Shown piece after piece: positions 1 to 33,967 of a stretch of 64,000 nt of DNA (position 1 is the stretch's first letter; each line of letters starts with the position of its first letter). Made by a program: the position numbers and the translations under genes. Below the pieces are notes generated by a model. That model was not told the origin of the DNA, made no database searches, and worked only from the letters and a program-made list of their open reading frames with translations. Source of the DNA: Gemmatimonadales bacterium (GTDB lineage: Bacteria > Gemmatimonadota > Gemmatimonadetes > Gemmatimonadales > GWC2-71-9); NCBI GenBank assembly GCA_039794085.1, contig JBDIWC010000002.1, forward strand, positions 9,829 to 73,828, written 5' to 3'.

Positions 1-42
1 GACGGGCCGCGAACTCCCCGGCGCCCCCGGGCCTGACCCCCC

Positions 43-1353
43 ATGCGCGCTCTGCTGGAGGGGGTTCTCCGGCTCGTGCTCCGGCTCTACTTTCGCACCA
101 TCGTCGTCCATGGTCTGGATCAGTTGCCTCCCGGCGGCCGGTTGATCTTCGTCCTCAACCATCCCAACGGACTGGTGGATCCGTTGTTCGTGCTCCTGAA
201 GAGCGGGCGCCGAGTCTCCTTCCTCGCCAAGGCCCCCCTCTTCCGGCTCCCGGTCCTCGGCTACTTCCTTCGGCTCACCGAGACCATCCCGGTCCACCGG
301 CCGGAAGACAACGCGGGCGACACGGCGCGCAATCAGGAGACCTTCGCACGGGCCCGCCAGGTTCTCCAGCACGGCCGGGCGATCGCGATCTTTCCCGAGG
401 GCACCACCCACAGCGACCCCTCGCTCAAGCCGCTCCGCACCGGGGCCGCCCGCATCGCCCTGGCCGCCACCGCCGATGGGCCGGTCTCCCTGGTGCCCAC
501 CGGGCTCACCTACAGCAACAAGGCCCGGTTCCGGAGCCGTGCCACGGTCCAGTTCGGGGTACCCATCGTGCTTCCCGTCGGCGCCGCCCCTGACCCCGAC
601 GCCCCGGACCCCATTGCGGTCCAGGCCCTGACTCAGCAGCTCCGGGATGCCCTGGGCCAGGTCACCGTGCAGGCCGACCGGGCCGAGATCATCGACCTCC
701 TGGCGCGCACCACGCGCCTCCTGGCTCCCCGTTCCGATCCCGACTCCGCAGTGGTCCTCCATCGCCGCATCGCCGAGGGCTACGCCCGGCTCCGCGAGGA
801 GGACCCCACGCGCCTGGCCCGGCTTCGCCACCGGGTGGAGCGGCACCTGGGCTTGCTGGACACGGTGGGCATCCCGCCCGAGGCCCTCAACTCGGCCTCC
901 TATCGTCCCCAACGCGTCGCCCTCTTCACGGCCCACCGGATCGCCCGGATTCTGTTGCTGGTCCCCCTCGGCGTCCCGGGGTTCGTGGTGCATGCCCCGG
1001 CGTGGGTGATGGTCGGACGCCTGGCCCGCCGCTACGCCAAGGGAGCCAGCGAGGTGGTGTCCACCGCTCAGATTCTGGGCGGGATGCTTCTGTACCCCCT
1101 GACCTGGATCGGTCTGGGGGGTGCGGTGTACCTCTGGCGTGGCTCGGTGTCCGCCGGCGTGACCCTGACCCTGGCACCCCTCGCCGGGTATGCGGCACTG
1201 CGACTCATGGAGCAGGCGGACTCCCTGATCACCGCCACCCGGGGCTATCTCTTCTTTGTCGCGGGGCGCGAGGGGTTCCAGCGGCTGGCCGCGGCGCAGC
1301 AGGCGCTGCGGGCCGACCTGGAAGCGGTGGGTCGCGAGAATCTTTCCGCGTGA
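43..1353 (+). CDS. lysophospholipid/1-acyl-sn-glycerol-3-phosphate acyltransferase family protein with C-terminal membrane extension
   Basis: PlsC-like acyltransferase motifs NHPNGLVDP (HxxxxD) and FPEGTT; hydrophobic C-terminal helices. Confidence 0.7.
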   Translation: MRALLEGVLRLVLRLYFRTIVVHGLDQLPPGGRLIFVLNHPNGLVDPLFVLLKSGRRVSFLAKAPLFRLPVLGYFLRLTETIPVHRPEDNAGDTARNQETFARARQVLQHGRAIAIFPEGTTHSDPSLKPLRTGAARIALAATADGPVSLVPTGLTYSNKARFRSRATVQFGVPIVLPVGAAPDPDAPDPIAVQALTQQLRDALGQVTVQADRAEIIDLLARTTRLLAPRSDPDSAVVLHRRIAEGYARLREEDPTRLARLRHRVERHLGLLDTVGIPPEALNSASYRPQRVALFTAHRIARILLLVPLGVPGFVVHAPAWVMVGRLARRYAKGASEVVSTAQILGGMLLYPLTWIGLGGAVYLWRGSVSAGVTLTLAPLAGYAALRLMEQADSLITATRGYLFFVAGREGFQRLAAAQQALRADLEAVGRENLSA

Positions 1354-1376
1354 GCCCGTGGTATCGGGGTTTGTAG

Positions 1377-1790
1377 GAAAACCACGAAAAGCACGAAAAC
1401 ACACGAAGGCATGGCGTCGTCATTTTCGTGTCGTTCCGTGTATTTCGTGGTACAAGTGGGAAGGACGGGTTTGGCTTTCCATCAGCGGGGGCCGTAAGCG
1501 ACGCCAGGACTGATCGAGTACGGGTACGAGTACGGGTACGGAAGACGCCCCTTCCTATCGCGGAGTTCGTTGCGCCCTCGCGTCCCTGCGCCCTTGCGTT
1601 AATCTTGCGGTGGGATCGAGCGAGGGGGACGCCGGAACGACGGGTTTGGCCTTCTGTCAGCGGAAGTCGTGAGCGACGTCAGGGCCTGATCGAGTACGGC
1701 TACGAGTACGAGTACGTGCACGGCCCCCCCTGATTCCCTACTCCCGACTCCCTACTCCCTGCTCCCAACCCCTACACCACCGGGGTCGGG
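1377..1790. repeat. composite intergenic repeat element: CACGAA-triplet hairpin (1386-1454), two copies of an approx 85-bp direct repeat each ending in a GTACGR hexamer tract (1472-1555 and 1638-1725), then CCCTACTCCC motifs (1731-1780)
   Basis: arm CCACGAAAAGCACGAAAACACACGAAGG and inverted arm TTTTCGTGTCGTTCCGTGTATTTCGTGG; GTACGGGTACGAGTACGGGTACGG; same modules recur at other loci. Confidence 0.8.
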
Positions 1791-2746
1791 AGAGTCCCCC
1801 CCTCGAACCAGGCCCGCAGATTGGCCAGCGCCAGCTTCCCCATCGCGGTTCGCGTCTCGAGTGTGGCGCTTCCCAGGTGAGGCAACAACACCACCTGCTC
1901 CATCGCCCGCAGGGCTTCCGGAACGTTCGGCTCCTCGGCGTACACATCGAAGCCGGCCCCGGCCAGCCGTCCTTCGGAAAGGGCCGCGACCAACGCCGCT
2001 TCGTCGACGATGCTCCCCCGGGCGGTGTTGATCAGCACGCTCGACGGCGGCATGAGGGCCAGCCGCCGGGCATCGATCAGGTGATGCGTCTCGGGGGTAG
2101 ACGGCACATGGAGGGTCACCACGTCGGATTCGATGAGGAGTCTATCCAGCGACACCTTCTCCGCCTCGATCCCACCGAGTTCCCAGGGGGGAACCGGGCT
2201 CCGCGAGGCGTACCGGATGCGCATGCCGAGCCCCGCATGGGCCCGCCGCGCGACAGTGGCCCCGATCCTCCCCATCCCCACCACACCCAGCCGGAGCCCG
2301 TGGGCCGATCGTCCCAGAAGTTGGGTCGGTTCCCACCCGGTCCATCCACCACTCCGCACCAGGCGCTCCCCCTCGCCCAGGCGCCGCAGTACCGCCAGGA
2401 TCAGCGCGATCGTCAGCTCGGCTGTCGCTTCGGTGAGCACTCCCGGCGTGTTGGAGACCCGGACACCGACACTTCGAGCCGCCTCCAGGTCGATGTTGTC
2501 CACCCCCACGCCGAAGTTGGCGAGCAATCCGGTGCGCCGGCCCGGCGTCCGCAGCAGGTTGGCGGAAAACCTGTCCCTGACGGTGCAAAGGATGGCGTCC
2601 GATTTCCGTAGCGCCTTGCGCAGATCGTCCGCTGTGGGCGGCCTGAATCCGGGAGGGTGCCGCACCTCGCCGAGGGTGCTCAGGGCGGACTCCACTTCGG
2701 TGGGGAGTCGCCGGGTCTGGTAGATGGTTGGTTTCGTCGAGGTCAT
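1772..2746 (-). CDS. D-isomer-specific 2-hydroxyacid dehydrogenase (glyoxylate/hydroxypyruvate reductase)
   Basis: NAD-binding GVVGMGRIGATVARRA, catalytic region typical of GhrB/HprA family; 324 aa. Confidence 0.85.
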   Translation of the reverse strand: MTSTKPTIYQTRRLPTEVESALSTLGEVRHPPGFRPPTADDLRKALRKSDAILCTVRDRFSANLLRTPGRRTGLLANFGVGVDNIDLEAARSVGVRVSNTPGVLTEATAELTIALILAVLRRLGEGERLVRSGGWTGWEPTQLLGRSAHGLRLGVVGMGRIGATVARRAHAGLGMRIRYASRSPVPPWELGGIEAEKVSLDRLLIESDVVTLHVPSTPETHHLIDARRLALMPPSSVLINTARGSIVDEAALVAALSEGRLAGAGFDVYAEEPNVPEALRAMEQVVLLPHLGSATLETRTAMGKLALANLRAWFEGGTLPTPVV

Positions 2747-2782
2747 GCTGCATTATACCGGCGACCCCATGCCGCAGGTACC

Positions 2783-4099
2783 ATGCCCTCACCCTCCCGT
2801 CATCAGCACCCGCGCGACCTGCTCGAGTTCTGTTTCCGCGAGGGTGTGCGGGCGGTCTCCCCGGACGTTGCCTTGCGCGGTGTTCTCCGCGCTCCCCCCA
2901 GCTCGGCGGCCACTCCGTGGATTCTGGGGATAGGGAAGGCCGCGGCCGGGATGGTGGCTGTCGCGGGAGAGGTGCTCACGGGGGCGGGACACGGATCAGC
3001 CGAGGGACTTGCGGTCCTGGATGAACCACCGGGACGGGAGCTCCCGGTGCTCTGGTGCGTGGGGGATCACCCCGTTCCGCGTGCCGCATCCCTGCACGCG
3101 GCGGAGCAGTTGAGGGAGACGGTGGCTCGCATCCCCGCCGGACACCCGGTGTGGGTCTTCCTGAGCGGAGGGGCGTCGAGTCTCATCGCGGCGCCGATCG
3201 GACCGATCACCCCGGAGGATCTCCGCGAGCTGTGGAGAGTGCTTCTCTCCAGCGGTCTCCCGATCGGAGAGATGAACGCGATCCGGAAGCTGGTTCTTGA
3301 ACACGCCGGGGGCCGGCTCGGCGTGGCACTGGGCGGCGGTGGCCGCGCGGTGTCGCAATATCTGATATCGGATGTCCCGGGAGACGACATCGCGGACATC
3401 GGGTCGGGTCCCTGCGTGGGAACGGTGGATCATCGAGAGATGGTACGAGCACACCTCGCTTCCCTGCCCCTGAGCCCTGCGCTCCGTGACCGGATCCTCA
3501 CCGTGCTCGAGGCCAGTCCCCCGCCCCGTGCCGATGATCCCGCCCTGGCGGGAATAACTCATCGGATCGTGGCCACCAACCGGCACGCCCGGGAGGCGGT
3601 GGGAGCCGCGGCCCGCACGCTGGGATGGGAGGTGGAGGTGGAGGGGACTCCGGTGACGGGCGAGGCGCGCCTTGTGGGCCGGGAGTTCGCCGCATTTCTC
3701 GTCGCTCAGGAACCGGGATCCGTTCCTCGGCTTATCGTGCGCGGGGGAGAAACGACGGTAAAACTCCCCTCCACCGGGACGTGTCCACCGGGAGGGCGCA
3801 ACCAGGAGCTGGCCCTGGCGGCGGCGGAGGTGTTGTCGGGAGACAGGATGAACCAGCCGGTGGTTCTGGCCGCGGGAACCGACGGGCGGGACGGGACGAC
3901 GGAGGCAGCAGGAGCCGTGGTGGACGGGGAGACGTGGGAGCGGATCCGGACCCTGGGTATCGACCCGGAGCGAGCCCTGACGGACCATCGTGCGCACGAG
4001 GCGCTGGCGGCCGTCGATGCGCTGGTGATCACCGGAAGGACGGGGACGAATGTGATGGATCTTCTGCTGGGTGTGGTCCCACCCCGAGGCGGGTGGTAG
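2783..4099 (+). CDS. glycerate kinase, MOFRL family (GckA/TtuD-like)
   Basis: MOFRL C-terminal motifs GGETTV, AAGTDGRDG; start at ATG 2783 chosen to avoid overlap with the convergent dehydrogenase (ORF N-terminal extension rejected). Confidence 0.75.
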   Translation: MPSPSRHQHPRDLLEFCFREGVRAVSPDVALRGVLRAPPSSAATPWILGIGKAAAGMVAVAGEVLTGAGHGSAEGLAVLDEPPGRELPVLWCVGDHPVPRAASLHAAEQLRETVARIPAGHPVWVFLSGGASSLIAAPIGPITPEDLRELWRVLLSSGLPIGEMNAIRKLVLEHAGGRLGVALGGGGRAVSQYLISDVPGDDIADIGSGPCVGTVDHREMVRAHLASLPLSPALRDRILTVLEASPPPRADDPALAGITHRIVATNRHAREAVGAAARTLGWEVEVEGTPVTGEARLVGREFAAFLVAQEPGSVPRLIVRGGETTVKLPSTGTCPPGGRNQELALAAAEVLSGDRMNQPVVLAAGTDGRDGTTEAAGAVVDGETWERIRTLGIDPERALTDHRAHEALAAVDALVITGRTGTNVMDLLLGVVPPRGGW

Positions 4100-4250
4100 G
4101 AATCACCACGTACCCGTACTCGTACATCTGCACGTTGGCTGGGAAGGTATACCCGTGGGTGCGCCGCTTGCGGCGCACCAGGGCCGTGAATGATTCTCTG
4201 CCTTGGGGTGCGCCGCAAGCGGCGCACCCACAAACGCCGGCACACCCACA
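4100..4250. repeat. repeat element: GTAC hexamers plus twin hairpins GGTGCGCCGC-TTGC/AA-GCGGCGCACC (4152-4172, 4205-4225) and CACAAA-type motif
   Basis: two near-identical perfect 9-bp-stem palindromes 50 bp apart; CACAAACGCCGGCACACCCACAAGG. Confidence 0.6.
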
Positions 4251-4254
4251 AGGC

Positions 4255-4605
4255 TCAGGGCTCCTCCGAGGGCGCATCGCGCCGCACGGGATCACCTTGT
4301 TGCATCAGCAAGCGTCCCGTGAAATCGAGCCGGTCCTCGAGCTCAGACACCCGGGCCCGCATCTCTTCGGCGTTCTGCTGGAGCTGCTCATTCTGATCGA
4401 GCACCTGCTGCAGATCCGCACGGTTCTGCTCGGCCCGTCGGCGAATCGTGAGGTGCCGAGCGCCGAGGGCCAAGGCGGCGGCCAGCAGGGCGTGGAGGGT
4501 GGCGTGCGCCGGTTCACCGGGCAAGGCGGCGAACCACACGGAAACGAGGTTGGCGGCGGACAGGGCCCAGGCCGTGGGAATCCAGGCGCGGTGCTTGAAC
4601 CACAT
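4255..4605 (-). CDS. small membrane coiled-coil protein, PspB-like (phage-shock protein B-like)
   Basis: N-terminal hydrophobic segment then coiled coil ADLQQVLDQNEQLQQNAEEMRARVSELEDRL resembling PspB; flanked on both sides by repeat elements. Confidence 0.4.
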   Translation of the reverse strand: MWFKHRAWIPTAWALSAANLVSVWFAALPGEPAHATLHALLAAALALGARHLTIRRRAEQNRADLQQVLDQNEQLQQNAEEMRARVSELEDRLDFTGRLLMQQGDPVRRDAPSEEP

Positions 4606-4865
4606 AGGAACCTCCTGGTGACGAGAGCCCGCGACACCTCTCCCTTCCTTTTCCGTACACCTACACGTACACGTACACGTACTCGTACTCGTACACGATA
4701 GGGCGGATCCCGGAAAAGATATCCTCTTTTCCGTACACGTTCTCGTACACGTTCTCGTACACGTTCTCGTACTCGAACGGCCCCGAATACCCCTGAAGCA
4801 ACTGCCGTGTACGGGTACGGGTACGGGCCCCTCCCCCCTTCTATGCCCTATGTCCTACGTCCTAT
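4606..4865. repeat. hexamer/12-mer microsatellite block: (GTACAC/GTACTC)n, (GTACACGTTCTC)x3, (GTACGG)x3, near-palindrome GGAAAAGATATCCTCTTTTCC
   Basis: read directly: cgtacacgtacacgtacacgtactcgtactcgtacacg; gtacacgttctcgtacacgttctcgtacacgttctcgtactcg; gtacgggtacgggtacggg. Confidence 0.8.
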
Positions 4866-5300
4866 TCACGGCACCAACCCCGGGACGGGATGAAAATCAT
4901 GTCCCAGCAGAACCGTCAGGTCCACCCGACGGAGGGTGTCGATCTTCACGACCACGCGTCCCACGCCGAGCGACCGCACCACGCGGAATCCGGCATCCTT
5001 GTCTCCCCGCCGAACCAGGATCAGGGTCGAATCGAGGATCGTGTCGGCGGTGCCAAAAAATACGACGTCGATTCCGTCCCGGCGCAACTGGGCGGTTCCC
5101 GCCCGGGCCAGCCGGGATCGCCGGGTGGCGTTGAGCACCTCCGCGGTCACCCGCTCGGATCCCCGGGTGGCCACGGCACTCGGCATCGAGGGGGTGTCGT
5201 GGCGGAACAGAATGGCTCCGGCCACGATCACGACACCCGCGGCGATGGCTACAACTGCGGCGCGAGGGATCGAACGGGAGAGGAAACGAGACTGTTCCAA
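4866..5300 (-). CDS. LytR_C (LytR cell-envelope-related C-terminal) domain membrane protein
   Basis: TM helix IPRAAVVAIAAGVVIVAGAILF followed by LytR_C-like domain (VTAEVLNATRRSRLARAGTAQLRRDGIDVV...VDLTVLLGHDF); start uncertain (TTG about 5300 or ATG 5186). Confidence 0.55.
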   Translation of the reverse strand: MEQSRFLSRSIPRAAVVAIAAGVVIVAGAILFRHDTPSMPSAVATRGSERVTAEVLNATRRSRLARAGTAQLRRDGIDVVFFGTADTILDSTLILVRRGDKDAGFRVVRSLGVGRVVVKIDTLRRVDLTVLLGHDFHPVPGLVP

Positions 5301-5851
5301 AATCGATAGGTCGGTTCCGGGATGGGCCAGGCCGACCGGGCAAGGTGCTCGAGGCGGCGGCGCGCCACCTCGAGCAGCACCCCCGTGGGGTTGGTGGGGA
5401 ACTCGCGGGCCAGGGCGGCCCGCTCCTCCCGATCGAAAGGGCGCCCGGGATCGAGAAAGTCGGCACAGTAGAGCACGCGTCCCACCATGTCCCACTCCGC
5501 GAGCCCCACGGAGTGATACCGCACGGCGTCGAGCACTCCACGATCGGTCTCTCCGTGCCCCTTGGCCCGGGCGGCACTCGCGGGACCATGGCGCAGCTCG
5601 ATCGGTCCCGGGGTGGTCGGCGCGGCGAGTTCCAGGTCCTCCAGCGGGGCATCGCGAAGAGCGTCGTGAAGCCACACCGCCCGGAGCCATCGATGGGTCT
5701 CCGAATCGGGCACCCCCATCTCCAATGCCCAGAGATAGGCCAGCGCGGCCACGCGCTTGACATGATCGATCCGGTCCTCGCTCATGATGGCCCAGTCGGG
5801 AATCGAGGGACGCAGTTCGGGCCGGATCGAGGGATCGGAATTCCGGTTCAT
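5249..5851 (-). CDS. yqeK: HD-superfamily hydrolase YqeK (bis(5'-nucleosyl)-tetraphosphatase-like)
   Basis: HD motif region RVAALAYLWALEMG...AVWLHDALRD; start may be internal ATG at about 5785. Confidence 0.65.
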   Translation of the reverse strand: MNRNSDPSIRPELRPSIPDWAIMSEDRIDHVKRVAALAYLWALEMGVPDSETHRWLRAVWLHDALRDAPLEDLELAAPTTPGPIELRHGPASAARAKGHGETDRGVLDAVRYHSVGLAEWDMVGRVLYCADFLDPGRPFDREERAALAREFPTNPTGVLLEVARRRLEHLARSAWPIPEPTYRFWNSLVSSPVRSLAPQL

Positions 5852-6351
5852 CCCCGACCGATCCTGCTCCGCGGGGGCACGCGACCGGGCGTCACCCGAC
5901 CCGGCGAGGGAGCGTCGGTCTCTGCCAGTGGATTCATCACGCCCAGTTCCTCCAGCTCATGGTGCCAAAAGGTCCGATCCCGGAGGCCGGGATGCGGCAC
6001 GGTCAACCGTTGGTCCGACAGCTCCGCGGAGCCGTGAAGCACCAGGTCACAATCGAGGAGGCGAGGAGCCCAGCGGCTTCCGTCGCGCACCCGTCCCGCA
6101 CACCGCTCGATCTCCAGGAGTGCCTCCAGGAGGTCATGCGGAGAGAGAGTCGTCTCCAGAAGGACCATCTGGTTGAGATACCGGGGCTGGTCAAACCCTC
6201 CCAGCGGCTCCGTTTCCTCGATGCTGCTGCAGGCAACCACCCGGGTTCCGGACAGGCTGGCCAATCCCCTCCGCGCTCCCTCCAGGGCCCCCGCCCGATC
6301 GCCCAGGTTGCTCCCCAGCGCCACGCACGCCCGTACCGTGGTGGTCATCAC
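5848..6351 (-). CDS. folK: 2-amino-4-hydroxy-6-hydroxymethyldihydropteridine pyrophosphokinase (HPPK)
   Basis: [39 protein letters not shown] conserved HPPK motifs; ATGA overlap with upstream gene. Confidence 0.85.
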
Positions 6352-8477
6352 GATTCCAGTGCCAAACTGCGCGCGATGACCTGGAGTTGAGAAGCGAGGA
6401 CCTCCAAGTCCCCGATCACCTTATCCAGATCGGCCTGGCCCCGTCGTGCCGCCGCCGCCTGTCCCGCGACATGATCGGCATCGGACCGGGCGGTCTGGGC
6501 CGCCTCGGCCACCTGCCGGATCTGGGCCTCGAGGCGGTGCCCTTCGCGTTCCTGATCGGTGGAGGCCTCGGCGATGGTCCGGGCCTCCAGCCCCGCAGTA
6601 CGTGCCGAGGACACGATGGCCTCCAGGGCACGGGCCGCCTCGGCGCTGACCTCTCCCACTCCGGACACCACGGTCTGGCCCAATTCCATCTGGGCTGTCA
6701 TGCCCCTCACAGCACTGGCGACCTCCCGCATGATCTGGGCCGCTTCTTCCGTCATTTCGGTGCTCTGCAGCGCGAGCGACCGCACCTCCTCCGCCACCAC
6801 GGCGAACCCCCGGCCCTCGGCACCCGCCCGAGTCGCCTCGATCGCCGCGTTGAGGGCGATGAGGTTGGTGGCGTCGGCCACGTCACGGATCGAGTCGATG
6901 AAGGTGGCGATCCGATCGGCGGCGGCCCCCAGCTCAGCCACCCGCGCCGAGGTGTCCTCCACGAAGCTCCGGACCTGAACCAGGCGGTCGATGGCATCCC
7001 CGATCGCCACCCGGTGGCGGTCGGCCGCATCGGCCGCGGCCCGGCTCGCCGTGGCGGCCCGGCGCCCCCCCTCCGCCGTTTCCGCGGATCGGCGGGTCAG
7101 TTCGCCCATGGTGGTGAGTCCCGCCTGGGCAAAGGTCTCATTGACTCCGATCTTCCGGCGCATTCCCTCCGCGGCCGACCCGAGGGCCACGGCGCTCCCC
7201 CGCAGCGACTGGGAGGCCCCCACCAGGGTCCGCACCTGGCGTTCGATCTGTTCCACCGTCCTCACCAGGGGGCGACGCAGTTCCGCGAGATGAATCGCCG
7301 TGGCGATCTGCCCTCCCAACGCCGCAATGGCGGCGAGATCGCGCGGGCCGTAGTAGTGCCGTTTGTGGTGTTCCAGTTCCAACGTTCCCAGCGTCATGTC
7401 GGCCATGCGCAGGGGGTGGATCACGATGGTCTTCCGGCCGGGGTCCTGGAATCCGAGCCGGGGGTCCTTCTCCGCGTCCGGGATCATCACGGTGATCCCC
7501 CTCTCGACGGCATCACGCCGGATCCGTTCCAGCGCGGGTCCCGCCGGTCCGCGCCCGGGACGTCCCAGCACCGCGCGGTAGAGGAGGGTGGCCTCGCCGG
7601 TCCCGGTGCGGAAGATGGAGTAGTCACCCCAGTCGACCAGGCGATAGGCGAGTCGCTCGATCTCCCCCAGGGCCCCGTGCAGGCTCGTCGTTCCGAGGAC
7701 GGCGGATTGCATCTGGTGCACCTTGTTGAGATCCTCGGCGGCGATGGCCTCCTCCAACAGGGTGCGGGCCAGGAGGCCCATCGCCCCCAGGGCAATGAGC
7801 ACGGCGGGCCACCCGGCGGGGGAGAGCGTCGCCACCGCCCAGACGATGACCGTGGCCGCCAGCAACGTCATCAGATAGGCGACGATCTCCCAGCGCAGGA
7901 TGAACAGGCGTTCCTCGAGCAACAATTTGTCGCGCACCAGCAGGGAGAAGTAGAACAACAACCGGGAAAAGGCGAAGTAGGCGAACACGAAGGCGGCGGC
8001 CGCCGGGAGGTAGTTGATCGAGAGCCCCTCCACGCCCGACGCGACATGCACCTGGGCATAGACGCCGTACGCCGCGGCAAAGGCCAGCACCTCCCGACCC
8101 GAATTGATCGCCGCGGCCACCAGGGGCTTCCGCGCCACCAGAAGGTCACCCAGCAACACTCCGGACCCGAGGGCCAGGACCACGGCACTGGGCGGCGCGA
8201 CCAACGCGCCGACCACCCCCGTGATCCCGCTCTGCGTGAGATACGAGTACTTGCTGAGACGGACCGGCGCGATGCGGAGACCGAATGCCCCCAGCGCCAG
8301 TGCCGTGGTCAGAAGCGGCACCTCCATCCACCGGGTGTCGAGCACGAGGCTCGTTGCCGCCACCACCAATCCCCCGATCCACAGGAGAGTGGCGTAGGTC
8401 GACAGGACCTGACCCACCAGGACGGGGGACCGGGGAGCCCGGGGGGAGTGGGAGGTGGACTCAGAGGAAATAGTCAC
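6348..8477 (-). CDS. membrane sensor: N-terminal multi-TM domain + GAF domain + methyl-accepting chemotaxis protein (MCP) signalling domain
   Basis: about 280 aa of TM helices; GAF-like segment; MCP highly conserved region [32 protein letters not shown]. Confidence 0.8.
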
Positions 8478-9918
8478 CGACTCGAATCCCGTAGCGCTCT
8501 GGGTTGGACACCTTGACGATGGACCGGAGGAAGGCCCCTCCCCCGGGAACCTCCTCGGCGAGATTCACGGTCACTCCGGGGGGAGGTATCACCGCCCCGT
8601 CGGGGTCGACCGTCAGGTGGACCAGGGGGCGATGCAGGAATTCCCGGTTCGGGTTGACGCTGGCCACGACACCGACTTCGAAGGTGTCGAGTACCACACA
8701 GGTCCCCACCGGATAGATCCCGATCAGGTTGATGAGTGCCTTCACGACGACCGGGTCGTACCCGCGCCGGGGATTCTCCCACATTTCCCGCAGCACCTGA
8801 TCGGGCTCGATCGGGGTGGTCTGGTACACCCGGCGGGTCGTGGCGGCATCGAACCCGTCTGCCACGGCCACGATGCGCGAATAGATCCCGAGTTCCCGAG
8901 GGCGGACATGCCGGGGATAGCCGGTGAGGTCGGTCTTCATGTGGTGCTCATGCGCCACCAGGATGGACCGGTAGGGGATTTCGTCGTATCCCCGGAGCCG
9001 GAACAGGGTCAGAGCCCCCCGCCAGGGGTGCTGTTGAATGAGGGTCCACTCGTCCTCCTCCAGCCCCCCGACCTTGTTGAGCACCTCCACCGGGATCCGC
9101 GCCTTGCCGACATCGTGCAGCAGCGCCGTCATTCCCAGATCGTAGAGTTGCAGCTTGGTCAGACCGATCTTCCGGCCGAGGGCCACCGCGAAGATGCAGA
9201 CGTTGACCGAGTGGGTGAAGGTGTACTCGTCGTAATCGCGCAGTGTGGTGAGACCGAGGATCGAGGTTTCATTGTTGAGAACCTGGTCCACGATCATCTG
9301 GACCGCCTGCTTGGCGCGCTTCAGGTTGCTGGTTCGACCGATCCGGATCGAGTTGATCACCTCCCGGGTCACGGCCACCCCATGCGAATAGGTGCGCTTG
9401 GCCTGCTCCCGGGCATGGCGCAACTCATCTGCGGCATCGGAACCGGAGGTGGCGTCCAGTTCCAGCCCACGAACCTTCGATCCCTGCAAACGCTCCAGCA
9501 GCAGTTCCTGACGACGCTCGGCCGGTTCCTGGCCCAGGGTCAGGAAGAGACTCAGCAGGACCTGCCACTCCGAGCGCTCCACCCCGGGATGGATGCGCAA
9601 GACCCCCACCTCAAAGGCTCGAAAGAGCTGCATGATGTGGGAGATCGCCGTGAAGTTGTCGAGCTCCAGGCGCAACCGTGTCGAGTTGACGAAGATGAAG
9701 TCCCCCGCGATGCGTATTTCAATCTCCCCCTCGGCGGTGAGGACCGCCTGGCATTCGCGCTGGAGGTCATCCAGCGCCTTCTGCACCGTGGTGTTTTCGA
9801 GGGGATAGAGCTTGAGGCTGCGCAGCGCGGCGTACAGGGTCAGCAGGAGGGTTCGCCCCGCCACCCGCAGAAACGCCTCATCGCCGTCCCGGTGGACCTC
9901 ACGGTCAGGTCCCGTCAT
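8461..9918 (-). CDS. HD-GYP domain c-di-GMP phosphodiesterase with uncharacterised N-terminal domain
   Basis: LHDVGK ... [12 protein letters not shown] (HD...GYP); ATG at 9918 overlaps stop of upstream gene (ATGA); ORF N-terminal extension rejected. Confidence 0.8.
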
Positions 9919-11612
9919 CACGCCGGCCACCCCCGCAGAATGCGGGACACGGCATTCCGCACCGACAACTCCTTGTCCCGCTCGTTGCGCTCCAGCACGG
10001 CACGCGCCTCGGGCGTGCGAATTCGTCCGAGGGCATAGACGGCGCAGGTGCGGATATCGGCGGGGGCCCGGCGGCGAATCCACCCCCGGGGTTCGAGCAC
10101 CCGGGTCAGTGCATCCAGGCCGGACGGTCCCGCCACCTCGGCGTACGCTTCGAAATACTGCAACCGTTCGGATCGTTCCAGGGTCAACCGGGACTTCCCC
10201 CGGACCACGGATTCCAGGCGAGACAGAGCCCCCTTGAAGCCCTTCTCCCGGACCACCTCCACCGCCGCGAGGCGCACCTCCCGTTCCGCATCCTCCAACG
10301 CGGGCTCCAGCGCGCCGAGTGCCCCGGGCGACCCGATCTGTCCCAGGGAGGTCACTGCGGCGGCGCGCAGCGGGGGCTCGGGGGCGCTGAGGAGGTCGGC
10401 CAGGCCGGGGACTGCGGCCTGAAGCTGCAGGCGCCCGCAGAGCTGCACCAGCGCAAGTCGCGCAGGGGAGTCGGGGACCCGCAAGAGCCGCAGCACTCCT
10501 TCGGTATCCGTGGCCGCCAGCCGGTCCGCCGCCGCCTCCAGGATCCGTTTCACCTCCTCGTCGGCCATGGTCGGAAGGCCGGCAAGGATCGGCTCCAGAG
10601 CCGGGGGACGCAGGACGCCTATCAAATCCACGATTCCACCCTCTGCCAGGGAACTGCCCGACTCATCCATGGCCTGGACCAGCTGAGTCACGATGGCGGG
10701 AGAACTCAGCTGCACCTCGAATCCCTCCAGACGCTGATGGAGGTCGGGCTGCAGGTTGCTCGCTCTCTTCCGTGCGACCTGGAATTCCCGAAGCAGTCGG
10801 GCGACGGCGGAGAACTGTCCCTGCGTGAGCAGATTCGGGAAGAGGGTGTCGAAGATCTCGATCGCCTCCCGTCGCGCCTCGAGCCCCTCCTGGAGTTCCA
10901 GGATGTCGAGGACGATGTCGAGGGCACTGCTCCGGATGTCCCGGGAGTACTCCTGGGCCACCTGTCGGCGCAACGCCTGCACCTCTCCATCGTCCAGGAA
11001 GTACAGGGTGCTGTCGAACTCGTCGAGGTCCACCACACCGGGAACCCGGGCCGGAGGAGCCGGATCCTGCCGCACCCGCTCCCGAACCTCCTCCGGAGCG
11101 GCGACCGCCTCGAGGTCGAGGGCCTGGGGGTCGAGGACCCCCATGTCGGTGACCACCTCCGCAAAATGGTAGGAGAGGAACTCGAAGTCCTGTTCCCAGA
11201 GCAGGGTGAGGAGGTCGTCTCCGGCATCCGCCGCCAACACCCGCGCCCGTCCGACCAGATTCAAGAAGGTGAAGATCTCCTTCTCCTCCACCCCGCGCCG
11301 GAGGGTCAGGTGACGCATGCCATCCTTGTACAGGCTCCAGGCAAAGCTCTCCGATCGGGTGGATTGGCTGTACACCAGGTCACCGTCCCAGAACATGTCG
11401 GTCTCGACGATCGTGAGCGCGACTTCGTCGGCCACCTCCCAGACCGGGACGAAGGCCTCCTGGAGGGTCTCCCGGGCCCGCTGGAACATCGGGTTGTTGG
11501 GAAGGTACATCTGGAACGCCCGGGCCGATTTCCAGATGGTCCGCAACAGGTCGCCAACGGAAGCGCACCCCGGTGCCTCGGCCCCCCCACCCAGCACGAC
11601 CGGGTCGGTCAT
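9918..11612 (-). CDS. HEAT/PBS-lyase-like repeat protein with unknown N-terminal domain
   Basis: C-terminal repeated AxxALGxIGxPxAxxxLxxxLxDxxxxVRxxA HEAT-like units; start taken at ATG 11612 (MTDPVV) because upstream extension is low-complexity and overlaps lexA. Confidence 0.55.
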   Translation of the reverse strand: MTDPVVLGGGAEAPGCASVGDLLRTIWKSARAFQMYLPNNPMFQRARETLQEAFVPVWEVADEVALTIVETDMFWDGDLVYSQSTRSESFAWSLYKDGMRHLTLRRGVEEKEIFTFLNLVGRARVLAADAGDDLLTLLWEQDFEFLSYHFAEVVTDMGVLDPQALDLEAVAAPEEVRERVRQDPAPPARVPGVVDLDEFDSTLYFLDDGEVQALRRQVAQEYSRDIRSSALDIVLDILELQEGLEARREAIEIFDTLFPNLLTQGQFSAVARLLREFQVARKRASNLQPDLHQRLEGFEVQLSSPAIVTQLVQAMDESGSSLAEGGIVDLIGVLRPPALEPILAGLPTMADEEVKRILEAAADRLAATDTEGVLRLLRVPDSPARLALVQLCGRLQLQAAVPGLADLLSAPEPPLRAAAVTSLGQIGSPGALGALEPALEDAEREVRLAAVEVVREKGFKGALSRLESVVRGKSRLTLERSERLQYFEAYAEVAGPSGLDALTRVLEPRGWIRRRAPADIRTCAVYALGRIRTPEARAVLERNERDKELSVRNAVSRILRGWPA

Positions 11613-11880
11613 GAGGTCGACGGCCCCATCCGGGGGAAGGGGCGGAGACACCGGGGGAGGATGGACAGGATCACAGGCGCACGCTCGCTTGCCCGTTGAT
11701 GGCGGAAATGGTGCCCCGGGCCGTCGCCTCGGGGGGCTGAACAAACTGCGAGCATTCAAGTTAGTCATGACGGGACAGGAAAAACACCACCTCCGGCCCT
11801 CCGAATGTCCCCTCTTGCGCTTCGGCTTGCATTCGGTAACTTGGAGAGTGAGATTTCGGCACTTCTTCGGGAGGGAGACC

Positions 11881-12489
11881 ATGCCCCTGACCAAACGCCA
11901 GCGAGAAATCCTTTCCTATCTGGAGGGGTACATCGGAGAGCACGGCTATGCCCCGAGCTTCGAGGAAATCGCAGGCCAGTTCACTTTCCAGTCCCTCGCC
12001 ACCGTCCACGAGCATTTGAGCAACCTCGAGCGGAAGGGTGTGATTCGCCGCTCCTACAACGAGAGCCGGTCGATTGAAATCGTCCCGCCCGCGGGAACGT
12101 CCGGCGCCTCGGAGATCCCTCTGCTCGGAACGGTCGCCGCGGGACTTCCGATCGAGTCGCTCGTCCACCAGGAAACTCTTGCCGTCCCCGATGACATGCT
12201 TCCCCGCCGTGGCCCCAATTTCGCCCTCCGGGTCAGCGGCAACTCCATGATCGATGATCACATCCTCGACGGGGATTGCGTCGTGGTCCACGGTCGGCAG
12301 ACGGCCGAAAATGGTGAGATGGTGATCGCGCTCGTCAACGGTGCGGAGGCCACCGTGAAGAAGTTCTATCGCGAGCCGGGTGGATGGATCCGGCTCCAGC
12401 CCGCCAACGCCGCCATGGTCCCCCTCCGGTTCCAGGAGCAGGATGTCATCATCCAGGGAGTGGTGGTCGGGGTGATCCGTCGTTTCTAG
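11881..12489 (+). CDS. lexA: LexA repressor
   Basis: N-terminal wHTH MPLTKRQREILSYL, cleavage-site AG (VAAG), Ser/Lys peptidase S24 domain GNSM...VKKF; 202 aa. Confidence 0.9.
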   Translation: MPLTKRQREILSYLEGYIGEHGYAPSFEEIAGQFTFQSLATVHEHLSNLERKGVIRRSYNESRSIEIVPPAGTSGASEIPLLGTVAAGLPIESLVHQETLAVPDDMLPRRGPNFALRVSGNSMIDDHILDGDCVVVHGRQTAENGEMVIALVNGAEATVKKFYREPGGWIRLQPANAAMVPLRFQEQDVIIQGVVVGVIRRF

Positions 12490-12595
12490 AGCAGGGAGTA
12501 GTCCCTTACGGACAGGATTGAACGCGAAACTCGAACAATATTTGGGGCGACGCCCGACCCCCCCGTCAGACCCGTCGATCGCCCCGGCCGCGCCG

Positions 12596-12850
12596 TGCGA
12601 GGGGGAGGGCCACACAAAGCACAGAAGTCACAAGAGGCACAACCTCGGGGCGCATGGGGGCCCCCCTGGGGCGAGAGAGGTTTCTGTGCCTTTTGTGCTT
12701 CTTGTGGTTGGCTCTGGGGGCGGGGAGAGGGCTCCGGAGGGACAGGAACCCATGCCGAAGAAAACCCACGCGAAACCCCGAGGTGCCTCTGTGGTTCCGG
12801 CTCGGCCAGCTTGGGGAGTAGGGAAGGGGGAGTAGGGGAATGGGGATGGA
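12596..12850. repeat. repeat element, CACAAA variant: CACAAAGCACAGAAGTCACAAGAGGCACAACC ... GGTTTCTGTGCCTTTTGTGCTTCTTGTGG, then GGGAGTAGGG (reverse CCCTACTCCC) motifs
   Basis: inverted arms around a GC-rich palindromic loop; gggagtagggaagggggagtagggg at about 12815-12842. Confidence 0.7.
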
Positions 12851-12993
12851 GCACCCCTGGGCTCGCCGGGCTCCAGCCCGGCACGCACCGAGGTTCCAAG
12901 GCCGTCGTCGATCTGATCATGGTGTCCCTGAATGAGCCGATCTGCCTGATTCCCCTGCTTGTACCGGGCCCCCCCAACGGCTAGATTCCGCCC

Positions 12994-13779
12994 GTGATCG
13001 GACGCACAGTCCACCTGCTCCTGCACTTCGACGGCACCGGTTTCCATGGATGGCAGCGCCAGAGTGCTGATCGCACCGTCCAGGGGGAACTGGAGGCCGT
13101 CCTTCGTCGGTTGTGCGGTCACCGGATCGTGGTTCACGGAGCGGGCCGGACCGATGCCGGGGTCCATGCGATCGGAATGAGCGCGAGCTGCACCGTGCCC
13201 GAGCGCTGGACCCCTCCGGATTTGTGCCGTGCGCTCAACGCTCTCCTGCCCCCGGATTGCTGGGTGGTGTCGGCCACGGAAGCCATCTCCGGTTTTCACG
13301 CGCGGCGCTCGGCCACGGAGCGGGAGTACCGGTACGACGTCGGGATCACTCCAGGCTGCCGTTCGCCCTTTCGGAGGCGATACGAGTGGCCCCTCGCGAT
13401 CCCCCTCGACCGGACGGCCCTCGACATGGCGGCGCACATGATGCTCGGTGACCACGATTTCCGGAGCCTGGCGGTCCGCACCGCGGATCGGAGCGACACC
13501 CGGTGCCGGGTGCGCGTGGCCCGATGGGAGAGCCGGGGCCCGGGGACCGACCTCCGTTTCCACATCGCCGCCAACCGATTTCTGCACCACATGGTGCGGA
13601 TCCTGGTGGGAACCATGGTGGAGATCGGACGGGGCCGACGCCCTCCGGAGGACCTCGCGGCACTTCTGGAACGGCGTCCCGAGGTGCGTGCCGCGGCCCC
13701 GGCGCCCCCGGGGGGACTCTTTTTCGTGACGGCGCGGTATCCGTCTCACTGGTTCCCCCACCTGGGTCACCCGGCATGA
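12994..13779 (+). CDS. truA: tRNA pseudouridine(38-40) synthase
   Basis: HFDGTGFHGWQRQ, catalytic GAGRTDAGVHA, FLHHMVR motifs. Confidence 0.85.
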   Translation: MIGRTVHLLLHFDGTGFHGWQRQSADRTVQGELEAVLRRLCGHRIVVHGAGRTDAGVHAIGMSASCTVPERWTPPDLCRALNALLPPDCWVVSATEAISGFHARRSATEREYRYDVGITPGCRSPFRRRYEWPLAIPLDRTALDMAAHMMLGDHDFRSLAVRTADRSDTRCRVRVARWESRGPGTDLRFHIAANRFLHHMVRILVGTMVEIGRGRRPPEDLAALLERRPEVRAAAPAPPGGLFFVTARYPSHWFPHLGHPA

Positions 13780-15194
13780 CCTCCTCCCCATTCCTCCTGC
13801 GCACGGTGCCCCTGGTTGTCGTGCTCCTGGGATGCAGCCACGATCCCCACACCGGGGACCTGGTGCGCGGCATGCAGGCCCAGCGGGGGGCCTCTCCCGT
13901 CCCCTCGCTGGATGGGTCCCGGCGCACGGCGATCGTGGAGGCCGCCGCCCGGGTGGGACCGTCGGTGGTGTCCCTCCATGTGGCCTCCCGGCGCCGTGTC
14001 ACCAGTGCCCCCGGCCCGTTCGATTTCTTTTTTGTGCCGCGGCAGTCGGAACAGGTCGTGGAGAGTTACGGTACCGGGTTCCTGATCCGCTCCGACGGCA
14101 TCGTCGTCACGAACCAGCACGTCGTGGCCGGCGCGGAAACCATCACGGTCTCTCTCCCCAACAACACCGAGGTCGAGGGAACCCTTCTCGGGGAGGACCC
14201 CACCACCGACATCGCGGTGGTCCGTATCCCGGGGCGGGGGTATCCCGTCCCCCCGATCGGGAGGAGCACGGATCTGATGATCGGGGAATGGGTCATCGCT
14301 CTCGGCAATCCCTATACCTATCTGCTCGGCAACGCCGAACCGACCGTGACGGCGGGCGTGGTCAGCGCCACGGGGCGCAACATCCTTCCCAGCGGTGACC
14401 AGCCGGGCATGTACCTCGACATGATCCAGACCGATGCGGCCATCAACCCCGGCAACTCGGGGGGGCCGCTGGCCAACGCGTCCGGCGAGGTGGTCGGGCT
14501 CGCATCCTCCATCTTCACGAGCGGAGGCGGATCGATCGGGCTCGGGTTCGCCATTCCGGTGGAGCGGGTCCTGCGCGTCGCCGAGGACATCATCCGCAAT
14601 GGCACGGTACGCCGTGCCTGGACGGGTCTGGACGTGGCCGGAGCGAGCGCCATGCGGGACTGGAAGAGCCGGGGCGGCGTGTCCGTGACCCGGGTGGCCC
14701 CCGGAGGACCGGCCGCGCGTGCCGGACTCGGTGAGGGCGCCGTGCTGGTGGAGGCCAACGGACGCCCGCTGCGCAACTACCTCGACTGGGAGGCCGTGAA
14801 GCTCGATCTGCGCGTGGGCGACACGATCTCCCTCCGCTACCGCGGCCCCCGGGGAGCACGAACGGTCCGGATCGTCACCGGGGATCTTCCCACCGTCACC
14901 GCCGAGAAGATCTCCGTGCTCCGGGGTCTCGAACTGGTCACCGTGACCCCCGCAGTTCAGGCCGAGCGCGGCCTGCGATCCGCCCGAGGTGCCCTGGTAT
15001 TCCGCCTCCCCCGGGAGGTGGCTGAGGCCACCGGACTTCGCGAGGGTGACGTGATCGTGGCGGTGAACCGGACGGTGATCACCTCGGCTGCTCAGGTGGG
15101 GCCGATCTTCGAGTCGATGAGGCGGCGACAACTCTTCCGGATCACGTTCGAGCGGGATGGACAATTCATCTTCACCGACCTCGAGTTTCGATGA
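13776..15194 (+). CDS. htrA: HtrA/DegP-family serine protease with two PDZ domains, lipoprotein signal
   Basis: lipobox VVLLGCS; catalytic TNQHVV (His), DIAVV (Asp), GNSGGPL (Ser); ATG 13776 overlaps truA TGA (ATGA). Confidence 0.85.
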   Translation: MTSSPFLLRTVPLVVVLLGCSHDPHTGDLVRGMQAQRGASPVPSLDGSRRTAIVEAAARVGPSVVSLHVASRRRVTSAPGPFDFFFVPRQSEQVVESYGTGFLIRSDGIVVTNQHVVAGAETITVSLPNNTEVEGTLLGEDPTTDIAVVRIPGRGYPVPPIGRSTDLMIGEWVIALGNPYTYLLGNAEPTVTAGVVSATGRNILPSGDQPGMYLDMIQTDAAINPGNSGGPLANASGEVVGLASSIFTSGGGSIGLGFAIPVERVLRVAEDIIRNGTVRRAWTGLDVAGASAMRDWKSRGGVSVTRVAPGGPAARAGLGEGAVLVEANGRPLRNYLDWEAVKLDLRVGDTISLRYRGPRGARTVRIVTGDLPTVTAEKISVLRGLELVTVTPAVQAERGLRSARGALVFRLPREVAEATGLREGDVIVAVNRTVITSAAQVGPIFESMRRRQLFRITFERDGQFIFTDLEFR

Positions 15195-16633
15195 GCGACA
15201 CCACGCGGTATCAGACCCCCCTCTCCACCCGCTACGCATCGCCGCAGATGCAGGCCTTGTGGGGGGCGCAGCACCGCGCCGGCCTCTGGCGCCGGATCTG
15301 GCTCGCACTGATGGAGGCCCAACGCGAACTGGGACTCGACATTCCCGCCGAGGCGATCGACGACCTCCGCGCGCATCTTGACGACGCCGACCTCGCGGTG
15401 GCCGCCGACTATGAGCGCCGATTTCGCCACGATGTGATGGCTCACATCCACGCCGTGGGTGACCGGGCCCCTCGCGCACGACCCTACCTGCACCTGGGTG
15501 CCACCAGCGCCTTCATCACCGACAACGCCGACCTCCTGGTCCTCCGGGATGGGCTCCAACTCCTGCTCGGCCGGACCCTCGCGCTTCTCGACACCCTGGC
15601 CCGGCAGGCCCGCGCCCATGCGGACCTCCCCTGCCTGGCCTACACCCACTTCCAGCCGGCCCAGCTCACCACCGTGGGCAAGCGGATGACGCTCTGGGCC
15701 CAGGATTTCGCCCTCGACGTGGAGGAGCTGCTCCACCGCCTCGCCACACTGCGGGCCCGCGGGTGCAAGGGCACGACGGGAACCCAGGCGTCGTTTCTCG
15801 AGCTCTTCGGAGGGGACCACGAGCGGGTCCGTGCCCTGGACCGCCTGATCAGTGACCGCCTCGGGTTTGCGGCGGCCTTTGCCGTCACCGGGCAGACCTA
15901 CCCCCGCAAGGTGGACGCGATGGTCCTCGATGCGTTGAGCGGTCTCGCCCAGTCCGCCGCCAAGATGGCGGTGGATCTGCGGCTGTTGCAGCACGAAGGC
16001 GAGATCCTGGAGCCCTTCGAATCCGACCAGATCGGGTCCAGTGCCATGGCCTACAAGCGCAATCCGATGCGGGCCGAACGCATCGGGGCGCTCGCGCGCT
16101 TCGTCATGGCGCTCCAGGCCAACGGAGCACAGACCGCAGCCACCCAGTGGCTCGAGCGCACCCTGGACGACAGCGCCAACCGCCGCATGACCCTGCCCGA
16201 GGCGTTTCTCGGGGTCGATGCCCTCCTGCTCCTCGCCAACAACGTGGCCTGGGGGTTGGAGGTCAGGGCCCCGGTCATCGCCCGGCATGTGGAGGCCCAG
16301 ATGCCTTTTATGGCCACCGAGCGCTGGCTCATGCTGGCCACGGCCCGAGGCGGGGACCGGCAGACTCTGCACGAGGTCATTCGCACCCACAGCATGGCCA
16401 CCGCGACCGCGGTGGCTGCCGGGTCTCCCAATGACCTCCTGGAGCGCCTGGCGGCGGATCCCGCGTTCTCGTCGATCCCCGCGGATCAGCTCCGGGCCGA
16501 ACTCGACCCCCGCCGGTATGTGGGCCGCGCACCGGAACAGGTGACCGAGTTCCTGGAGGAACATCTCGCGCCGCTCCTGCGGCGCGCCCGGCCTCTCGCC
16601 ACCGCACTCACGGCCGCGGAGATCCGCGTATGA
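15191..16633 (+). CDS. purB: adenylosuccinate lyase
   Basis: fumarate-lyase signature GSSAMAYKRNPMRAE; 480 aa; ATGA overlap with htrA. Confidence 0.9.
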   Translation: MSDTTRYQTPLSTRYASPQMQALWGAQHRAGLWRRIWLALMEAQRELGLDIPAEAIDDLRAHLDDADLAVAADYERRFRHDVMAHIHAVGDRAPRARPYLHLGATSAFITDNADLLVLRDGLQLLLGRTLALLDTLARQARAHADLPCLAYTHFQPAQLTTVGKRMTLWAQDFALDVEELLHRLATLRARGCKGTTGTQASFLELFGGDHERVRALDRLISDRLGFAAAFAVTGQTYPRKVDAMVLDALSGLAQSAAKMAVDLRLLQHEGEILEPFESDQIGSSAMAYKRNPMRAERIGALARFVMALQANGAQTAATQWLERTLDDSANRRMTLPEAFLGVDALLLLANNVAWGLEVRAPVIARHVEAQMPFMATERWLMLATARGGDRQTLHEVIRTHSMATATAVAAGSPNDLLERLAADPAFSSIPADQLRAELDPRRYVGRAPEQVTEFLEEHLAPLLRRARPLATALTAAEIRV

Positions 16634-19940: not shown

Positions 19941-19961
19941 CCCCCTGAGACGAACCGACCG

Positions 19962-33955: not shown

Positions 33956-33967
33956 CTTCCTGGAGCA

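Follow-up and report, generated by a model that had tools for sequence, protein, structure and literature searches.

The closest described counterparts of the repeats studied here are the repetitive extragenic palindromic (REP) sequences and their paired forms, the REPINs, which are associated with RAYT genes. A REP unit is an imperfect palindrome that carries a GT[A/G]G tetranucleotide, and RAYT proteins are HUH/Y1 (IS200-like) transposases. We analyzed a 64,000-nucleotide (nt) stretch of contig JBDIWC010000002.1 from a Gemmatimonadales bacterium (hereafter, the window), which contains a dispersed family of intergenic hairpins whose arms are built from three phased copies of a CACGAA-type hexamer. 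Arms of the same grammar flank a small nuclease gene, GxxExxY, in other genomes, and the tie between the window hairpins and the arm family of these GxxExxY cassettes is well supported. On balance, and with moderate confidence, we regard the window hairpins as gene-less, non-autonomous members of a GxxExxY cassette family that crosses phyla, similar in kind to REPINs or to miniature inverted-repeat transposable elements (MITEs).

Like REP sequences and REPINs, the elements are short intergenic repeats that occur as singlets, inverted doublets (hairpins of 70-120 nt) and clusters; a small nuclease gene is flanked by inverted repeats, and copies without the gene are far more numerous than the gene itself. 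The arm also bears a conserved GTGG/CCAC-like tetranucleotide at its outer end. In contrast to the REP unit, the arm consists of three phased direct hexamers without an internal palindrome, and the gene encodes a Cas4-like PD-(D/E)XK protein rather than an HUH/Y1 transposase. The arm grammar, unlike that of REPIN-RAYT systems, crosses most phyla while its hexamer varies, and GxxExxY is often multi-copy and inside operons, with its start codon within an arm. With MITEs the elements share terminal inverted repeats, a size below 500 base pairs (bp), a non-coding short form alongside a longer form that has the same ends and carries a gene, and presence confined to a lineage. They differ from MITEs and insertion sequences (IS) in that internal sequences are unrelated, no target-site duplication was found (the flanks are palindromic) and the ‘parent’ is only ~0.5 kilobases (kb) long; the partner that shares their ends codes for a PD-(D/E)XK protein of 115-130 amino acids (aa) alone and for no DDE, HUH, serine or tyrosine transposase. 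The intervening sequences (IVS) of 23S rRNA are tolerated inside transcription units, and some carry a small open reading frame (ORF) of the PF05635 family. Similarly, our inverted repeats enclose either a small ORF or no ORF, pair into a long stem when transcribed and are tolerated in transcription units; however, they are not in rRNA genes (Rfam finds no rRNA gene in the window), the ORF family is another one, and the arm is a triple hexamer. Finally, phage Mu has three transposase-binding sites at each end. As at the Mu ends (L1-L3/R1-R3), the TnsB sites of Tn7 and the terminal repeats of IS21, several direct motif repeats are present per end and are inverted between ends, but those repeats are ~19-22 bp, are bound by DDE enzymes and belong to kilobase-sized elements that make target duplications, whereas the units here measure 6 bp, recur every 9-10 bp and are not accompanied by a DDE gene.

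The link between arm and gene rests on loci in which the arms enclose GxxExxY. In locus L129, two inverted arms exactly enclose a 128-codon ORF that encodes a GxxExxY protein (TIGR04256, 2.7e-42; PF13366 PDDEXK_3, 3.3e-42). Across all loci examined, 47 of the 72 inverted arm pairs lying 180-1200 nt apart enclose a GxxExxY gene recognized by a hidden Markov model, and four further such pairs (L129, L382, L423 and L438) enclose GxxExxY on the strand opposite to the ORF that was scored. A set of cassettes was collected from the best 80 metagenome loci encoding relatives of three GxxExxY proteins taken from arm-bearing loci, and 73 of the genes were evaluable, with at least 80 nt on both sides. 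Three-unit arms were present on both sides of 50 of these genes, on the 5′ side only of 11, on the 3′ side only of 9 and on neither side of 3. At least one arm is thus found at 70 of 73 genes (96%), a figure that may overstate the whole GxxExxY family given that the seeds came from arm-bearing loci. Arm density within 150 nt of a GxxExxY gene was 6.37 per kb, compared with 0.25 per kb elsewhere in the same loci, a 26-fold difference. The arms are closely fitted to the gene: in 48 of 67 cassettes the 5′ arm includes an in-frame ATG, and the median distance from the stop codon to the 3′ arm is 11 nt.

Cassettes differ in their hexamer (CACGGA, CACAGA, CACGAA, CGCGGA, CACAAA, CACTGA, CACCAA or CGCGAA), and the majority hexamer is the same in both arms of 46 out of 53. 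Where a cassette lies between a DNA methylase gene and an SNF2 helicase gene, L422 has CACGGA/CACAGA arms on both sides, while syntenic relatives with 70-75% protein identity have CACGAA, which indicates that all units of a cassette can switch together. Besides this methylase|SNF2 context, cassettes were found inside co-directional defense operons between PglZ and BrxL of bacteriophage exclusion (BREX) systems and between type I HsdS and YhcG (L448 1192-1648; L424; L446; L398), and the cassette of L434 is flanked on both sides by aldehyde dehydrogenase genes. In Bacteroides finegoldii (protein WP_032839887.1), a complete cassette separates radA from a gene for an FAD protein, with three CACAGA units before GxxExxY and three TCTGTG units after it. 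In Gemmatirosa kalamazoonensis, which belongs to the window’s phylum, the GxxExxY gene is followed by a CGCGGA-type hairpin, whereas the arms are more widely spaced in Bernardetia and cut down to one unit in Treponema. Partial and expanded forms also occur. In L439 and L446, an additional 5′ arm and loop follow the stop codon and precede the 3′ arm, and three Gemmatimonadaceae contigs from metagenome-assembled genomes (L456, L457 and L458; ~4415-5105) share an identical GxxExxY protein and upstream genes, followed by one to three tandem CGCGGAT hairpins depending on the sample. This variable hairpin number could be a real polymorphism or an assembly effect. L456 additionally holds a truncated second GxxExxY copy beside a hairpin. 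In the Acidobacteria-like cassette of L372 (~1905-1945), the 3′ arm is in direct orientation, whereas it is inverted in the otherwise orthologous L370, L373 and L377, which suggests a local inversion of the arm.

GxxExxY (TIGR04256/PF13366, PDDEXK_3) is a protein of ~115-130 codons with a Cas4-like minimal PD-(D/E)XK nuclease fold. A confident AlphaFold2 model of the Gemmatirosa-type protein (predicted local confidence, pLDDT, 90) shows no extra DNA-binding domain; further down the ranking, it resembles restriction endonucleases, lambda-exonuclease-like enzymes, Hjc resolvases and tRNA-splicing endonucleases. Residues D71, D75 and K83 are invariant and E81 is kept in at least 90% of sequences, so that the catalytic D...E-x-K motif is conserved. 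A sequence search of the PDB returned no solved structure related to GxxExxY. The family is large, with 22,451 clusters at 50% identity (E<=0.001), and the one characterization that we found lists PDDEXK_3 as ‘Unknown; Prokaryota & Viruses; multiple transfers’ (PMC3424549). In the literature that we searched, GxxExxY, PDDEXK_3, TIGR04256 and PF13366 are treated only in passing and no link to an arm cassette was found, although descriptions may exist outside it. Some predicted proteins of the clade have N- or C-terminal extensions such as TRNTRR or PRVPPIPRGPRNPSV, which look like translated arms when the peptides are judged by eye. Several proteins of 250-277 aa (P0241, P0245, P0253, P0262 and others) contain two tandem GxxExxY domains and would be either fused adjacent cassettes or products of read-through of an arm.

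On direct reading of the 64-kb window, all of the loci reported in the original prediction were present, namely four dispersed hairpins and a nested array at 63080-64000. The isolated hairpins are 71-117 bp long and without an ORF; each consists of a left arm (A)ACCAC(G/A)AA-nn(n)-CAC(G/A)AA-nnn(n)-CAC(G/A)A(A/G), a loop and an inverted right arm ending in GTGG(TT), with arms of 27-34 nt. As predicted, the three hexamer cores are about one helical turn apart, mostly 9 and then 10 bp, with 8-9 bp in some array copies, whereas the loops, given as 13-50 nt, measure 17-61 nt. Contrary to the prediction of mirrored arms, the array combines left arms of two CGCGAAG units and right arms of three TTTCGTG units that are not mirror images of each other. 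In the window, which has a G+C content of 64-69% and whose Dus and PurK homologs place it in Gemmatimonadales, CACRAA-N3-CACRAA was seen 8 times against 0.02 expected from shuffles, and CACGAA 65 times against 26. The view that this is a genuine dispersed intergenic family is borne out. When folded as DNA, 6 of 7 elements had z scores of -3.5 to -5.1, and 0 of 200 shuffles folded equally well. The exception was 63084-63196 (z = -0.7), whose left arm has just two CGCGAA units. RNA folds of the elements were similar to the DNA folds.

The hairpin at 1381-1451 (arms 1381-1407, ACCACGAAAAGCACGAAAACACACGAA, and 1425-1451; 17-nt loop; DNA z = -4.8) lies, according to Pfam searches of the flanking ORFs, between convergent genes for an acyltransferase (+) and a 2-hydroxyacid dehydrogenase (-). 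The hairpin at 12610-12707 is of a CACA(A/G)A variant, with a left arm of four units (12610-12643) and a right arm at 12681-12707 (z = -4.7), and is located between the tandem genes lexA (+) and truA (+). A CACAAA / T(T/C)TGTG variant is found at 28360-28457 (left arm 28360-28388, right arm 28430-28457; z = -5.1) between the convergent purK (+) and a Met-zincin gene (-). The fourth isolated hairpin, at 40797-40913 (arms 40797-40824 and 40886-40913; 61-nt loop; z = -3.5), separates the divergent dus (-) and a ptsN-like EIIA-2 gene (+), whose ATG at 40946 is 33 nt away. With one divergent, one tandem and two convergent contexts, the window hairpins show no preference for 3′ ends. The RNA fold of 28360-28457 reaches -61 kcal/mol on the - strand compared with -44.7 kcal/mol on the + strand, owing to G.U pairs, and 12610-12707 likewise folds clearly better on one strand for the same reason. 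Given this asymmetry in two copies, some of the window hairpins may have an RNA role.

The array contains at least 11 arms in nested and tandem arrangement and continues past the window end. It includes at least three hairpins (63084-63196, 63424-63538 and 63610-63721), with + strand arms of two CGCGAA units at 63092, 63279, 63618, 63801 and 63944, + strand arms of three CACGAA units at 63344, 63432 and 63866, and arms of three TTCGTG units at 63164-63188, 63506-63530 and 63689-63713. Segments between the arms also repeat at a higher order (63190-63280 versus 63592-63619; 63366-63431 versus 63888-63939), and their 91-95% identity over 21-34 nt indicates recent local duplication. The intergenic region of the first hairpin (1354-1771) is itself composite, with a 91-nt local direct repeat (1455-1545 versus 1634-1716, 84% identity) and a candidate extra arm of a variant type at 1569-1609 (-), which has five CGCAAG/CGCAGG/CGCGAG units and a CCAC end.

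To place these hairpins in a wider context, we scanned for the pattern TTCGTG-N2-5-TTCGTG-N2-5-TTCGTGG, which matched at least 120 stretches in viral contigs and at least 120 in species-representative genomes. The counts of arm grammar, partners and solo arms given here rest on the matches listed in these two scans. Raw counts prove little, since ~70 chance matches to this 19-base gapped pattern are expected in 596 gigabases by an arithmetic estimate, and since a control pattern also gave at least 95 matches in viral contigs. The genome matches listed include Verrucomicrobiota, Planctomycetota, Acidobacteriota, Chloroflexota, Bacteroidota, Desulfobacterota, Methylococcales, Nitrosomonas, Heliobacteria, Gemmatimonadales and others, with isolates such as Herpetosiphon aurantiacus DSM 785, Desulfobacter vibrioformis, Rhodocyclus purpureus and Flavobacterium spp. 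Both viral contigs and the genomes of most bacterial phyla contain the arm grammar. No match to the pattern was found in cultured phage genomes, and no GxxExxY relative was confirmed in viral contigs with back-translated peptide patterns. The consensus tttaA-CCACGAA-(g/t)na-CACGAA-nna-CACGAA is common to the window arms and the pattern matches. An arm has exactly three units, with a fourth in only 17 of 297; the unit periods are (9,9) in 152 arms, (10,10) in 57 and (9,10) in 46, with (10,9) in just 4, and the first spacing thus typically does not exceed the second. Of 268 arms, 107 (~40%) have a strong partner up to 150 nt upstream, both CCAC ends pointing outward; for the 65 arms with flanks of 3 kb, the search found no pairs separated by 1-3 kb. 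Arms also form same-orientation arrays without partner arms (L222 5379-5625; L196 6496-6740), in which the modules end in TTCGTGG(TT) on the pyrimidine-rich strand, and solo arms in viral contigs often lie directly upstream of start codons. BLAST clustering of the downstream and of all ORFs at the pattern matches gave only generic phage and housekeeping families and no common neighbor gene, and Pfam found no family in common among 86 downstream ORFs. With Rfam, the only hit in the window at the gathering score was the transfer-messenger RNA (tmRNA) described below, and searches of the array and of five element-rich loci at E<=1 or E<=5 gave no relevant match.

We were curious whether the conserved object is a helix or a set of sites. 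The original prediction had argued from compensatory changes between the arms for selection on the stem. In part this stands, as hexamer types do match between arms (46/53) and whole cassettes switch type together. However, among 117 gene-less hairpins the cores are 92% complementary compared with 61% for the spacers, and in 31 of the 117 the unit spacing is unequal between the two arms. Some arm pairs are systematically mismatched (CACTAAT/ATTCGTG in L219; CACAGAG/CTTCGTG in L015), differences compatible with wobble pairing in cassettes whose transcribed strand is known fall almost evenly on the sense and antisense strands (51 versus 48, with no G.U strand bias), and ~60% of arms are solo. 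Cores that stay paired, spacers that drift and mismatched arm pairs together indicate that what is conserved is the arm of three phased ACAC-N-R-A sites rather than a continuous helix. This agrees with the suggestion that the phased triplets resemble protein-recognition modules. The matching of the two arms is explained equally well by pairing and by concerted evolution of terminal repeats.

Comparison with related genomes bears on whether the hairpins are gained. The synteny of ptsN and dus is kept among relatives, but the length of the spacer between them differs. The window and a 98% relative (GCA_041741375.1) have spacers of 284-302 nt that contain the hairpin, and relatives at 82-83% Dus identity have spacers of 77-101 nt that lack it. 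The hairpin is thus lineage-specific, although the empty sites, which the original prediction had proposed to look for, are not clean. The 98% relative shares all 36 core bases of this hairpin with the window, and ~9 changes fall in the spacers and loop; this retention of the cores against drift elsewhere is suggestive, without reaching significance. For the hairpins at 1381-1451 and 28360-28457, a search for filled and empty sites at the strain level gave only window-identical contigs or contigs ending at the hairpin. Two independent Logan contigs of a close relative (L467 7220; L468 6651) stop 4-5 nt before the site of hairpin 28360-28457, which is what assemblers do at a multi-copy repeat.

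A full cassette of ~0.45-0.5 kb comprises a 5′ arm of three (A)ACCAC-N-R-A units with a 9-10 bp period, the GxxExxY gene and an inverted 3′ arm ~11 nt past the stop codon. The window copies retain both arms flanking a short, unrelated loop, occupy intergenic space of any kind and were gained in this lineage. On analogy with REP/REPIN-RAYT and MITE-transposase pairs, we propose that the arms would be cis sites recognized by the cassette’s nuclease, three phased sites per end, and gene-less doublets, solo arms and arrays would be spread, kept or rearranged in trans. We infer by the same analogy that GxxExxY may bind or cut the arms and that the elements may move, with the nuclease as the presumed agent of their mobilization. 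Hairpins would also fold when transcribed, and in full cassettes the fold could enclose the start codon; an effect on host transcripts would be secondary. A REP- or MITE-like non-autonomous element was among the options of the original prediction and is the one that the evidence favors, while the hairpins do not prove to be portions of a known IS or MITE with a transposase elsewhere, the associated gene being no known transposase. More tentatively, we consider it possible, if somewhat doubtful, that GxxExxY cassettes are a new minimal (~0.5 kb) autonomous selfish element, in which a lone Cas4-like nuclease recognizes three phased hexamers per arm and spreads or maintains itself and a larger gene-less population across most phyla, viruses and defense operons. 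The arm-GxxExxY cassette is apparently undescribed, whereas hairpin repeats tied to a nuclease gene are already a known kind.

Several observations weigh against membership in a mobile cassette family, in addition to the seeding of the cassette set noted above. We know of no lone PD-(D/E)XK nuclease that carries out transposition. Searching a six-frame translation of the 64-kb window (hmmsearch --max) with a profile of 71 GxxExxY sequences found no GxxExxY gene or remnant, so the window copies are gene-less. GxxExxY was found in just 3 of the 240 loci collected by the arm pattern, most arms being far from the gene, and 39 of the 65 arms with 3-kb flanks (~60%) have no partner at all. Inverted arms are missing from more distant members of the family: Fusobacteria and Prevotella examples of GxxExxY have direct-repeat flanks, and the Persicobacter gene has no arms. 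The loops of different copies are unrelated to one another, unlike those of classical MITE families; nor was any loop similarity seen between the window hairpins and the Gemmatimonadaceae hairpins. The ptsN-dus sites without the hairpin differ by ~200 nt, more than the 117-nt hairpin alone would explain. Lastly, no direct repeat indicative of a target-site duplication was seen, and no clean filled/empty pair was available; the flank consensus, TTAA/GAA..TTC, is palindromic and indistinguishable from an extension of the arm.

The explanations that compete with cassette membership can be set against the same evidence. The hairpins might be RNA structures useful to the host (RNase III processing sites, insulator stems or stabilizers of 3′ ends, comparable to rRNA IVS stems), with GxxExxY as a parasite that lodges in or homes into their loops. 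Consistent with this, the arms lie within the cassette mRNA, with the start codon inside the 5′ arm in 48 of 67 and the 3′ arm 11 nt past the stop; cassettes sit in the co-directional operons PglZ|BrxL, HsdS|YhcG and methylase|SNF2 without splitting them; the 12610 and 28360 hairpins fold better on one RNA strand; and convergent genes flank two of the four window copies. We nevertheless find this explanation unlikely, as a selected RNA stem is difficult to reconcile with the even wobble counts, 61% spacer complementarity, 31 of 117 unequally spaced hairpins, ~60% of arms without a partner within 3 kb and the same-orientation tandem arrays in L222 and L196. Further, the terminator scan reported neither of the two hairpins in the 20 kb that it covered, T-runs are inconsistent, and relatives lack the ptsN-dus hairpin in the corresponding spacer. 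Alternatively, the hairpins could be inert relics of GxxExxY cassettes that lost the gene by recombination between or near the arms and have no mobility of their own. They have exactly the arm grammar of full cassettes, and partial forms are frequent, including one-armed genes (20/73), the truncated gene beside a hairpin in L456 and the extra 5′ arm and loop in L439 and L446. We judge this origin quite improbable: no gene remnant was found in the loops (hmmsearch --max on the six-frame window) and the loops are unrelated to the gene ends; hairpins and solo arms are far more numerous than the gene, with ~117 gene-less hairpins and 3 GxxExxY genes in the pattern-selected loci; and arrays with many arms, such as 63080-64000, would be hard to obtain by decay alone.

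The arms could instead be double-stranded binding-site arrays, similar to iterons or operators, for a host protein, for example a nucleoid or regulatory factor, that has no relation to GxxExxY. Three units with a 9-10 bp period, conserved cores and free spacers would suit such sites, as would the solo arms found often just 5′ of start codons in viral contigs; the CAC strand is more often the mRNA sense strand (48 versus 27), a weak and noisy statistic that depends on crude ORF calls. There is little to recommend this idea once it is noted that the hexamer varies widely among lineages and even among cassettes, a misfit with one conserved factor, that no common neighboring or downstream gene family was found, that copies occur between convergent genes, and that the arms are tightly and specifically tied to one small nuclease gene. 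As for chance repeats of low complexity or slippage without common origin, the ~70 random matches expected and the control pattern, three TCTGGT units, with at least 95 matches in viral contigs, might seem to speak for them. The control was poorly chosen and is useful as a contrast, as its matches are in-frame Ser/Gly coding repeats. Among the matches listed, identical spacers were seen in 53 of 95 control matches versus 27 of 147 real ones, and an inverted partner arm in 7 of 95 versus 38 of 147; in the real matches the spacers vary and are rich in purines, the flanks are conserved and inverted partners are common. Chance is effectively refuted by this contrast, by the window enrichment (8 versus 0.02 expected) and by the 26-fold rise in arm density beside GxxExxY genes.

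A number of other identities were rejected. The original prediction had raised bidirectional terminators; a consensus scan for intrinsic (Rho-independent) terminators over 1-20000 reports neither 1381-1451 nor 12610-12707, the stems are long and interrupted with loops of 17-61 nt, no consistent T-tract is present (by eye, a short T-run follows only some sides of the four hairpins), and one copy is divergent and one tandem. For an integron attC site or gene cassette, the flank AAC...GTT is present, but the arms bracket the ORF on both sides, copies stand singly among housekeeping genes and gene-less same-orientation arrays occur (intI was not searched for). Plasmid or phage iterons were dismissed, the units being of 6 bp at a 9-10 bp period and occurring at many chromosomal sites with unrelated neighbors. 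DnaA boxes, parS, sigma-54 or ECF promoters, hammerhead cores and A-tract bending were dropped after reading the sequence, and a coding HEx repeat was dropped because periods of 8 and 10 are out of frame.

Some further features of the window were recorded. The tmRNA gene lies at 33965-34328 (-) (Rfam, 130.9 bits), with ANSNLAMAA as the tag peptide called by ARAGORN. ARAGORN also called a 96-nt tRNA-Ser(gga) at 16059-16154 (-), inside a + strand ORF (15191-16633) that has strong support from G+C content at third codon positions; Rfam reports no tRNA there, and the call is probably a false positive. At 4155-4231, in the gap between ORF candidates 2657-4099 (+) and 4255-4605 (-), there is a perfect 25-nt inverted pair (GTGGGTGCGCCGCTTGCGGCGCACC and its complement), each arm of which is a GC-rich palindrome; this is a different type of hairpin from the arm family and possibly a real terminator. 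The LexA homolog at 11317-12489 (+) (LexA_DNA_bind and Peptidase_S24) would have ~190 residues before its DNA-binding domain if the first ATG is used, and thus has either an unusual N-terminus or a true start further downstream.

In conclusion, the arm described here is a precise cis-element and hence offers a testable substrate for the large GxxExxY family. Arm repeats probably break up metagenome assemblies, in view of the many GxxExxY contigs that are only 1-2 kb long and the two contigs that end at hairpin 28360, and the translation of arms would explain odd N- and C-terminal peptides in predicted proteins. If the proposed relationship is correct, the cassettes and their gene-less hairpins would represent a second system, independent of REPIN-RAYT, for how hairpin repeats colonize genomes.

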